From NCBI RefSeq assembly GCF_003334385.1, contig NZ_QOWN01000001.1: a stretch of 64,000 nucleotides of DNA, one strand, 5' to 3'. The first letter of the stretch is position 1, and each line of letters opens with the position of its first letter. A program made the position numbers. The stretch comes from Escherichia coli. Lineage in GTDB: Bacteria; Pseudomonadota; Gammaproteobacteria; Enterobacterales; Enterobacteriaceae. Shown piece by piece: positions 42,001 to 45,000 of the stretch.

Positions 42001-45000
42001 CTGACGCCGTTTATCTGGCTTGTTATCAGATGCCTTCATCCGTAATGTTAGCTGCGCACGCGACACGCCCAGAACACGGCTTACCGGAGCTATTCCTTGT
42101 CCGAAGGTAACAAGGGCACATGCGCTATCCATTTTCGCGATTGTGCGTACTCCACCGCTTCTTTGAGGATCTCAACTTCCATTGTTTTCTTGCCCAGTAA
42201 ACGCTGAAGCTGATTAATCTGCTTTATCGCAGCGGCCAGTTCAGAAGCAGGAACAACGTCTTCACCGGCAGCAACAGCAGTGAGGCTTCCTTCCAGGTAT
42301 TGTTTTTTCCACTTAAACAACAGGCTGGGCTGAATGCCATGCAAACGTGCCACGTGGGACACAGTCATGCCAGGCTCCATAGTCTGTTGAATAATTGCGA
42401 TTTTTTTTCTGAGGTGTTTTACGTTTACGCACCTCTTTTCCTAACAAAACGCCAGCAATCTCAAAATTAGAACTAGTGTTAGACATATATCCAAGCCTAC
42501 CTCTTATTTTAAGATACATCTACTGTCTGGTATTTCAGGGGGCCAGTCTAGTATTTCACTGTGTTGTATTGAATCTGTATTTTCTTCGCACCTCGTTTAT
42601 CTCATCTCTATAGACAATGCCATCAGATAACTCATACCCTTCAGCACAACGCTGTGTGTCGTTAATAATCCGTCGTATCCATTCTGTTACAGCATGCCTG
42701 ATAAATACCATCTGTAAGTTATTACCGTTTTAGATCTGATTATGAGCGAAAGCATTAATTCGCTCACAGAGCTTAAAACATCATTAACTTTCAGGAGTCA
42801 TCAACATGCCTAAATCTTACACACCAAACTGGTTTTTTACCGCTTTACTTGACAATCACATCAATCAAATGATGGCACGCTATTCCTGCCTGCGGGCCTT
42901 ACGCATGGATTTCTTCTACAGGAAAGATACGCCTGATTTCTTACAACCTGATCATCGCTGGCTTGAATTGCAGTTGCGTATGCTGCTGGAGCAGGTAGAA
43001 CAATTTGAAAATATCGTTGGTTTCTTCTGGGTGATTGAATGGACGGCTGATCATGGTTTTCATGCGCATGTCGTTTTCTGGATCGATCGTCAGAGGGTTA
43101 AAAAAATATATCCCTTTGCGGAGCGGATAGCGGAATGCTGGCAGGCAATTACGTATAACTGTGGTTCGGCGCACCGCTGTACATATCAGCCGCATTATGC
43201 ATACAACATCAACATTCCTGTGCGCCACAACGATCCTGAAAGCATCGATAATATTCGCGGTGCCCTGCATTATCTGGCGAAAGAAGAACAAAAAGACGGG
43301 CTGTGTGCCTACGGCTGCAATGAAGTTCCTGAACGTCCTGCTGCAGGGCGTCCTCGTAAGCCTCACTTCTGAAGCTTAAGGCCTGAGCCTCCGCTCCTGG
43401 AAACACTCCGTCGGTAAAAACTTACCGCATTGATTAATGATGTGAACTGAAGTCAACGGAGATCATTCATCCTGAACCTGAATCCGGTGTTCTGTTCCTT
43501 GCCGGTTACCGGATCTTCCCGTTCTGCTTCAGTTCTTCACTTATTCCATCAATCTCATCCGCAAGCCATAACACGTCAGCTCATTCACGGGCAGGACGCA
43601 CTGTGGGCTGCGCATAACGGAACATATCTTATGAATGCTATTCCTTATTTCGACTATAGCCTGGCACCCTTCTGGCCGTCTTATCAGAACAAAATCATCG
43701 GTATCCTTGAGCGTGCGCTGCGTGAGCAGTCCGGCTCCCGGATACGACGGATCCTGCTTCGTCTGCCATGTGAATATGACCGTACCTTCAGCAGCAGAAA
43801 GATCTGGTTCGGTATGGACTTTATCGAAACCGTCAGTGCGCTGATGAATGTAACCTCCGGACGTGATCTCTGCTGGCTCCTGACTCGTCATCCTGAAAAG
43901 CCGGAATACCACGTGGTGCTGTGCGTCAGACAGGAGTATTTCGATGGCTCTGAACTGGATCGGCTGATTCTTGATGCCTGGAGCAACGTACTGGGCTTCA
44001 TGTCACCGGGTGAAGCGGCACCGTACCAGAAGCAGATCACCCGGGATGTGGTGCTGGACAGTCGTTCACCGGACTGCGAAGAGATATTTCAAGCGCTGAT
44101 CTGGGCGTTCAGTGATTTCGCCCGCGATCGTCGTGGTGTACGCGATCCGGAAGCCCGTTACCTTGCCGGTAATCCCTGGTATCCGGTAGCAGGCCAGCTC
44201 TGAAAACTCCGTTCAGTAGATTCACCCGCATTTGCCCAACCTTCATAAATCTCACAGAGGACATTCTGACCATGTTGACCACAACAAGCCACGACAGCGT
44301 ATTGCTGCGTGCCGACGATCCCCTGATCGACATGAACTACATCACCAGTTTCACTGGCATGACAGATAAATGGTTTTACAAGCTGATCAGTGAAGGTCAT
44401 TTCCCTAAACCCATCAAACTGGGGCGCAGCAGCCGCTGGTACAAAAGTGAGGTGGAGCAGTGGATGCAGCAACGAATCGAGGAATCCCGGGGGGCAGCAG
44501 CATGAAACGTGTTGTAATGCCAGTACGCTGGCAATGTGCAAAATGCCAGCGCTGGTATTGTGGAACCCGGCCCTGCCCCTGGTGCTGGCGACATTTACGT
44601 TCATCTTCTTGCAGACATTCTCCAGTCAGCCTGCAGGTTATAGCTATTCCTGACTGATTCGTCATTCTATTCTTATTGATTATAACTGGCATTACACCGG
44701 TGCCGGAGTGTTTTTCTGTAAGTCTGCGCCGGTTCAGTAAATTAGAAAAGAAACATCTGTCAACGCCAAGATTGTTAGTCGTTACGCCTTATATCACTGG
44801 CGCTGACATTTATCTGTTTCAGTGAAGCATGCCCACAGATTGAGTTATTAAGTTGTGGAAGAACAGCTCTGCCCCGCCTGCTTCTCTCCTTTCAGAAGCC
44901 AGTATGTTGCCATGCCCCGTCTTAATGGTGAGCGCTGAACCATACCTGCTTTTTCCAGTAATAACAGGTAATAGCGGGCCTGGTAATCCGTTACCGCCAG

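Follow-up and report, generated by a model that had tools for sequence, protein, structure and literature searches.

Homopolymer phase-variable genes, the so-called 'contingency' genes, form a known class in bacteria. Among insertion sequences, IS2 has a target-site duplication of 5 bp, and the ISfinder convention regards copies as the same element at roughly 95% or more identity at the DNA level. In IS1447, an element of the IS3 family, a run of seven A's is reported to suffice for slippage (PMC6211511), and bacterial RNA polymerase was found to slip efficiently when a run comprises 9 A or T (PMC5009743). The run of IS1447 is conserved and forms part of a 'slippage-prone region' in the transposase gene, the full-length product of which cannot be made without it. 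For ISfinder elements of the IS1 and IS3 families, A_AA.A tetramers were described to be 'well represented' among the frameshift motifs, although weak (PMC4066793).

The nearest named relative of the element described here, as found in a search of 5,426 complete Escherichia coli genomes, is ISEc48, to which the element aligns at 94.9% nucleotide identity across 98% of its length; the matching copy carries the PGAP-given annotation 'IS3-like element ISEc48 family transposase'. Chromosomes can hold 22 or more copies of ISEc48-type elements. In RM10740, the presence of the element at 22 chromosomal places and additionally in plasmid copies indicates that it has probably been active recently.

The copy analysed here lies on the minus strand at positions 41215-42550 of the window, as we call the whole stretch of 64,000 nucleotides from an E. 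coli contig (NZ_QOWN01000001.1) that was studied. All coordinates below are window positions, and the features of the element are read on the minus strand. It is a defective, full-length (1336 bp) insertion sequence of the IS3 family and IS2 group, delimited by an alignment of the window copy, ISEc48 (Rb-50), the Br_112 copy, the RM10740 element, IS2 of K-12, and two more distant damaged copies. It resembles ISEc48 (Rb-50, RM10740, and others) in its length of about 1.33 kb, its orfA/orfB layout, and an identical programmed-frameshift region, and differs from it by a run of eight A's (A8) in place of a G followed by six A's (G+A6), by a 1-nt deletion in orfB, and by ATT in place of ATG. For the window-type copy, the name given by PGAP is no more specific than 'IS3 family transposase'. 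With IS2 of K-12 (insC/insD), it has the gene organisation in common and a similar terminal sequence (TAGACTGGCCCCCTGAA...). We regard the element as very probably an ISEc48-like insertion sequence that has become fixed as a decaying pseudogene, located in a pap pathogenicity island of the tRNA-Phe (pheU) type of extraintestinal E. coli. The frameshifted pseudogene as such is already known and flagged by RefSeq/PGAP.

The orfA-proximal terminal inverted repeat (TAGACTGGCCCCCTGAAATACCAGACAG...) covers 42509-42550 and aligns with the ends of IS2 and ISEc48, and the orfB-distal repeat covers 41215-41255; both were located by self-BLAST and alignment. In the self-BLAST, the two ends pair imperfectly over positions 9-42 (34 nt at 88%), as is characteristic for the terminal repeats of about 40 bp of the IS2 group. 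The orfB-distal repeat has clearly diverged from that of ISEc48 (GGGGTGGCTCA in the window copy versus GGGGGCAAGAACA in ISEc48). Within it, position 41237 reads T on the minus strand in the window and C in the other aligned copies; it is also the sole base that differs between the window and CFT073 among the 1451 compared (41150-42600). No further copies of the element were found within the window, where self-matches were restricted to its own inverted repeats. A target-site duplication was not found at its borders, as the flanks AATAC and AGTTT differ. Likewise, no simple empty site was found among the genomes that match only the flank on the side of the Gp2 gene; in these, SWHEFF_68 being an example, the flank is followed by unrelated DNA. 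Therefore, the element sits at a mosaic junction, where no target duplication can be defined.

Already in the preliminary description, an InsC-like reading frame was said to switch frame at a poly-A tract within 42383-42424, and the translation bears this out. The sequence cagaaaaaaaatcgc was found on the minus strand, and the run inside this interval consists of eight A's at 42401-42408 (T8 on the plus strand), embedded in CAG-AAAAAAAA-TCGC (42411-42397 on the minus strand). Compared with the G+A6 of intact copies, the A8 run contains a G-to-A substitution and one extra A, so that the frame of orfA is shifted by +1 past codon 28. As now read from an ATG at 42486, orfA covers 42313-42486 and encodes 57 aa, of which 28 codons are authentic and 29 are out of frame, with a stop at 42313-42315. 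The 57-aa product contains no helix-turn-helix region, and no match to it was found in NCBIfam. By translation and alignment, the remainder of orfA (residues 29-131, ending in ...SDKE) follows in the shifted frame at 42090-42401, with its TAG at 42090-42092.

Upon removal of one A, a continuous OrfA of 131 aa is obtained, which differs from that of ISEc48 by 5 substitutions in 131 residues and shows 73% identity to InsC of K-12 IS2 over 118 aa without gaps. The repaired protein is of the IS2 InsC/TnpA type, which is characterised by a helix-turn-helix and a leucine-zipper region. It matches the profile NF006928 'IS2 repressor TnpA' with E = 8e-57 over profile positions 4-121 of 121, at a score of 191 bits, which lies under the IS2-specific NCBIfam cut-off of 229.

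How long the run is in intact relatives was read from the same alignment. The copies of Rb-50, Br_112, and RM10740 were taken as intact, as they are annotated with a programmed frameshift and carry no pseudogene flag. All ISEc48-type relatives have CAG GAA AAA ATC GCA at this site (G+A6, in frame, Q-E-K-I-A), and IS2 of K-12 has CAG GAA AAG ATC (GAAAAG), which is also in frame. A run of seven or more A's at this site was found neither in the ISEc48-type relatives nor in IS2. An equal run length in functional relatives had been named beforehand as the observation that would speak against a disabling frameshift, and the comparison with ISEc48, Br_112, RM10740, and IS2 revealed no such equality.

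A-rich motifs on which the frame shifts do occur in IS3-family elements, and the switch might accordingly be taken for the normal programmed orfA-orfB frameshift. This reading has a negligible probability. The switch lies at orfA codon 28, within the region homologous to InsC, and goes in the +1 direction, and the sequences on both its sides align to one continuous InsC protein of IS2. The programmed -1 site lies elsewhere, at an A_AAA motif (CGA AAA TGG) at 42132-42135, about 270 nt downstream of the A8 run, and its alignment columns are identical to those of the intact ISEc48 and Br_112 copies. The programmed site was thus rejected as the cause of the switch, in agreement with the earlier notion that the two are distinct. 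In the intact relatives, PGAP annotates a joined coding sequence of 402 aa (1208 nt) with 'programmed frameshift', the length of which fits a junction at A_AAA (109 + 293 aa); orfB also has an ATG of its own at 42130-42132. At the slippery position, IS2 has CAAAAAAGTGG with an A6G run, whereas the window lineage has CGAAAATGG with the A_AAA tetramer. A loss of the programmed slippery motif in the window copy, which this difference from the A6G-type run of IS2 might suggest, was considered and rejected, as the intact ISEc48 sequence is identical.

The second lesion was found in orfB. As now read, orfB covers 41419-42132 and encodes 237 aa, running through a 1-nt deletion at 41428-41429 (alignment columns about 1139) to end in ...SNGMADGS. 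The deletion lies in the GAA codon of a glutamate (E235) belonging to a DD(35)E triad, where GCAGAACGG of the intact relatives has become GCAG-ACGG in the window, with a premature TGA at 41419-41421. Intact relatives read AAT GGA ATG GCA GAA CGG TTC GTG AAA (N-G-M-A-E-R-F-V-K), and the window reads GCA GAC GGT TCG TGA. By translation, the remainder of orfB continues in the shifted frame at 41252-41428. As counted on the repaired translation, the glutamate of the damaged codon sits exactly 35 residues past the aspartate of WLTDNGSAY, which is the place of the catalytic glutamate in the DD(35)E motif of IS3-family transposases. As encoded, the triad is not intact, the Glu codon reading GAC and the frame ending two codons on. 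The deletion was found in each of the copies compared at this locus, namely those of the window, CFT073, 1532MA, GN04275, AF18, and 372_BP0083.

With the base re-inserted, an OrfB of 293 aa is obtained (...TDNGSAY-(35 residues)-E-RFVKTMK), which differs from that of ISEc48 by 12 substitutions in 293 residues. It scores 205.6 bits against NF033516 'IS3 family transposase' (cut-off 160), as a DDE transposase of the rve type does, and matches 'IS2 transposase TnpB' end to end with E = 1e-125, at 419 bits, under the IS2-specific NCBIfam cut-off of 597. Because the scores of the repaired proteins fall below the IS2-specific cut-offs, the element is a member of the IS2 group other than IS2 itself. 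Two single-base repairs thus suffice for full-length OrfA (131 aa) and OrfB (293 aa), and the repaired element has the layout of the IS2 group, with orfA overlapping an orfB in the -1 frame and a slippery motif.

A third lesion is possible at the start of orfA. At the position where PGAP places the start of ISEc48, one codon upstream of the insC start of IS2, the window lineage has ATT (42457-42459; alignment columns about 100-103 and annotated coding coordinates) instead of the ATG of ISEc48 or the GTG of Br_112. Upstream of this IS2-equivalent start position, an in-frame ATG persists at 42484-42486. In a promoter scan, no sigma-70-like promoter was found upstream of orfA on the minus strand, and the two matches on the plus strand are no more than shuffled sequences give.

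The distribution of the run was analysed with exact 64- to 66-mers, differing only in the run, which were searched against the 5,426 complete genomes. Exact matches to the A8 65-mer were found in 123 records, including CFT073, ATCC 11775, APEC O1, and S88, and to the G+A6 allele in 158 records, whereas the A7 allele was matched exactly in four records and the A9 allele in none. Homopolymers are the commonest sites of indel errors in long-read assemblies, and the extra A might be such a sequencing or assembly artefact of the window. As 123 independent records of complete genomes share the identical 65-mer, this possibility is vanishingly small, and sequencing error was rejected as the source of the A8 run.

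In each listed A8 record, the 65-mer was found at one place only, and the top 40 matches cover both flanks at 99.9%. The left junction of the insertion sequence is common to 111 genomes. Because about a dozen A8 records, including MS8345, do not have this standard left junction, the same locus is shown only for most of the A8 copies; the different left flank in carriers of the MS8345 type presumably results from a later rearrangement. The window is collinear at 98.8% with an island of CFT073 that contains a tRNA-Phe gene, an integrase, pgtABCP, this insertion sequence, a gene of the Gp2/YagK type, and the papI/papB-papG-II operon. CFT073 carries the same copy of the element, annotated in RefSeq as 'IS3 family transposase, frameshifted'.

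Of the four A7 records, one, on plasmid pAA of strain 042, holds a copy that is heavily degraded and unrelated to the locus of the window. The other three (GN04275, AF18, and 372_BP0083) carry A7 at the chromosomal locus of the window copy and are essentially identical to it outside the run, differing only at 41237. Hence, 3 of about 126 genomes have A7 at this locus. They fall on two flanking haplotypes, and A8 is found on both of these as well: the two proteins that flank the element in GN04275 and AF18 are those of ATCC 11775 (A8), and 372_BP0083 has its downstream hypothetical protein, WP_000639470.1, in common with CFT073 (A8). Since A7 occurs on two haplotypes that also hold A8, there has been more than one change, or more than one mis-call, of the run length. 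Some of the A7 calls may reflect errors of sequencing or assembly in the homopolymer. The tract thus shows mild instability rather than being completely fixed, without consequence for transposition.

In the preliminary description, it was proposed that a slippage-prone run could act as a reversible switch, and for transposition this proposal fails. A homopolymer of eight is indeed prone to slippage, and the A7 alleles at the same locus on two flanking haplotypes are what slippage between A7 and A8, turning transposition on and off in the manner of a contingency locus, would leave behind. Like phase-variable 'contingency' genes, orfA has a mononucleotide run in its 5' coding part and an A7/A8 length polymorphism among close strains. 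However, the base lost from the catalytic Glu codon of orfB is missing in all three A7 copies too, and their annotation still calls them frameshifted pseudogenes, so that the in-frame state, in contrast to that of contingency genes, encodes no functional transposase and restores at most an orphan OrfA. The tract is also not conserved in functional homologues, which have no long run (G+A6), the polymorphism is rare and one-sided, with A9 absent from the 5,426 complete genomes, the window-type element is single-copy in every record listed in contrast to ISEc48-type elements, and part of the A7 calls could be homopolymer assembly errors. The idea of a reversible switch therefore appears highly improbable, and a switch of transposition is excluded because the A7 state is still without a functional orfB.

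The run could also be read through at the level of expression. RNA-polymerase slippage on A8, or ribosomal frameshifting, would then restore the orfA frame in part of the transcripts and provide a repressor like TnpA of IS2 acting in trans on related elements. The match of the repaired OrfA to 'IS2 repressor TnpA' is compatible with such a role, and the A8 run is comparable in length to the published cases, i.e. the efficient slippage on 9 A or T (PMC5009743) and the seven A's of IS1447 (PMC6211511). As in IS1447, a run of seven or more A's lies in an IS3-family transposase operon, and slippage of the polymerase is conceivable; a little full-length OrfA might be made in this way. In contrast to IS1447 (PMC6211511), the run is located within orfA, has no counterpart in intact relatives, and could not rescue a transposase since orfB is broken. 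Programmed transcriptional slippage would involve a run that is conserved and needed for the transposase, and the relatives have G+A6 or GAAAAG instead; a long run that is missing from all of them is not a conserved expression signal. Further, the IS2-equivalent start is ATT, a sigma-70-like promoter was not found upstream of orfA on the minus strand in the scan, and neutral decay is the simplest reading. Such recoding is very unlikely. Even less probable is a related possibility, namely that the dead element has been kept as a source of an orphan TnpA-like repressor, the output of which would be set by replication slippage between A7 and A8 or by RNA-polymerase slippage.

We return to the decaying pseudogene as the preferred explanation. 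The lesions are read directly from the DNA, and we infer from them the order of the mutations and replication slippage as the mechanism. First, a G-to-A transition in CAG GAA AAA ATC (Glu27Lys) would have extended the run from A6 to A7. Next, replication slippage would have added one A (A7 to A8), causing the +1 frameshift and truncating OrfA before the helix-turn-helix. Independently, one base was lost from the catalytic Glu codon, and the IS2-equivalent ATG changed to ATT. The element would since have stayed at one chromosomal position as a single copy, inherited together with the island. The occasional A7 at the same locus could represent slippage back, a retained ancestral state, or a homopolymer sequencing error, none of which would restore transposition. 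Because the catalytic Glu codon is broken and the ATG start is ATT, the element cannot make transposase at any length of the A-run. The earlier suggestion that the run inactivates the element is therefore only partly upheld: the frameshift is real and disabling, and the element is dead, but the run is not what decides this, as the deletion at the catalytic Glu of orfB and the ATT start are present too.

If a trans-acting repressor were nevertheless produced, it would be a variable inhibitor of the transposition of ISEc48 and IS2-group elements in the genomes of extraintestinal pathogenic E. coli. Otherwise, the apparent 'slippery switch' matters little, the IS pseudogene being disabled by at least one further lesion. 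In combination, the A8 run and the orfB deletion mark this pap/pgt island lineage stably, and they were seen in about 126 complete E. coli genomes. Beyond this, the element may serve as an illustrative case in which a frameshift by slippage would have been preceded by a point mutation extending the homopolymer (A6 to A7).

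In orfB of this ISEc48/IS2-like element, a 1-nt deletion (41428-41429, minus strand) disrupts the GAA triplet that encodes the catalytic Glu of the DD(35)E transposase and leads to an early TGA at 41419-41421. This lesion was common to all six orthologous copies aligned, including the three (GN04275, AF18 and 372_BP0083) in which orfA, with the A7 allele of the poly-A run, is in frame.

The start of orfA was also altered. Where PGAP places the ATG of ISEc48 orfA, one codon upstream of the start of IS2 insC, the window lineage carries ATT (42457-42459, minus strand), and GTG is found at this position in Br_112, an ISEc48-type relative. 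An in-frame ATG is still present further upstream, at 42484-42486. Over the 1451 bases compared (41150-42600), the sole difference between the window and CFT073 and the other near-identical copies was position 41237, which is T on the minus strand in the window versus C in these copies and falls within CTGTCTGG, the conserved core of the inverted repeat at the orfB-distal end.

In 1532MA, the orthologous copy (locus L008) contains an extra in-frame 6-bp tandem duplication of TGCTGT in orfA, at about 500-510 of this locus, and an IS2 insertion is located just past its left end. These changes represent the same pseudogene decaying further.

An intact ISEc48-like element with the G+A6 allele was present in RM10740 (locus L014), a single feral-pig isolate, at 22 chromosomal places and additionally in plasmid copies. 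In the copy inspected, the 11-nt sequence TTATGAGCGAG stood directly before the left end and was repeated 4 nt after the right end. The element is undergoing an ongoing IS expansion in this isolate.

Elsewhere in the window, the longest homopolymer was a T9 run (45590-45598, plus strand), which lies in frame (…SEMHFFLLIG…) in a papB-like regulator gene. The papI-papB intergenic region holds two GATC sites on the plus strand (45284-45287 and 45386-45389) spaced 102 bp apart, which is the layout of the Dam/Lrp switch of Pap phase variation.

The pap/pgt island of the window is 98.8% identical to that of CFT073 across 27 kb. The neighbour of the IS, an inovirus-Gp2 / YagK-YfjJ-type gene (42806-43372, plus strand), is intact in the window and encodes 188 aa, whereas its CFT073 orthologue is annotated as frameshifted, which shows that the window does not come from CFT073. 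No target-site duplication was found at the IS, which is flanked by AATAC and AGTTT (window 41205-41220 and 42545-42560). In SWHEFF_68 and further genomes whose match is confined to the flank on the Gp2 side, this flank continues into unrelated DNA, and the IS therefore marks a mosaic junction at which the island's pap/Gp2 and pgt modules meet.
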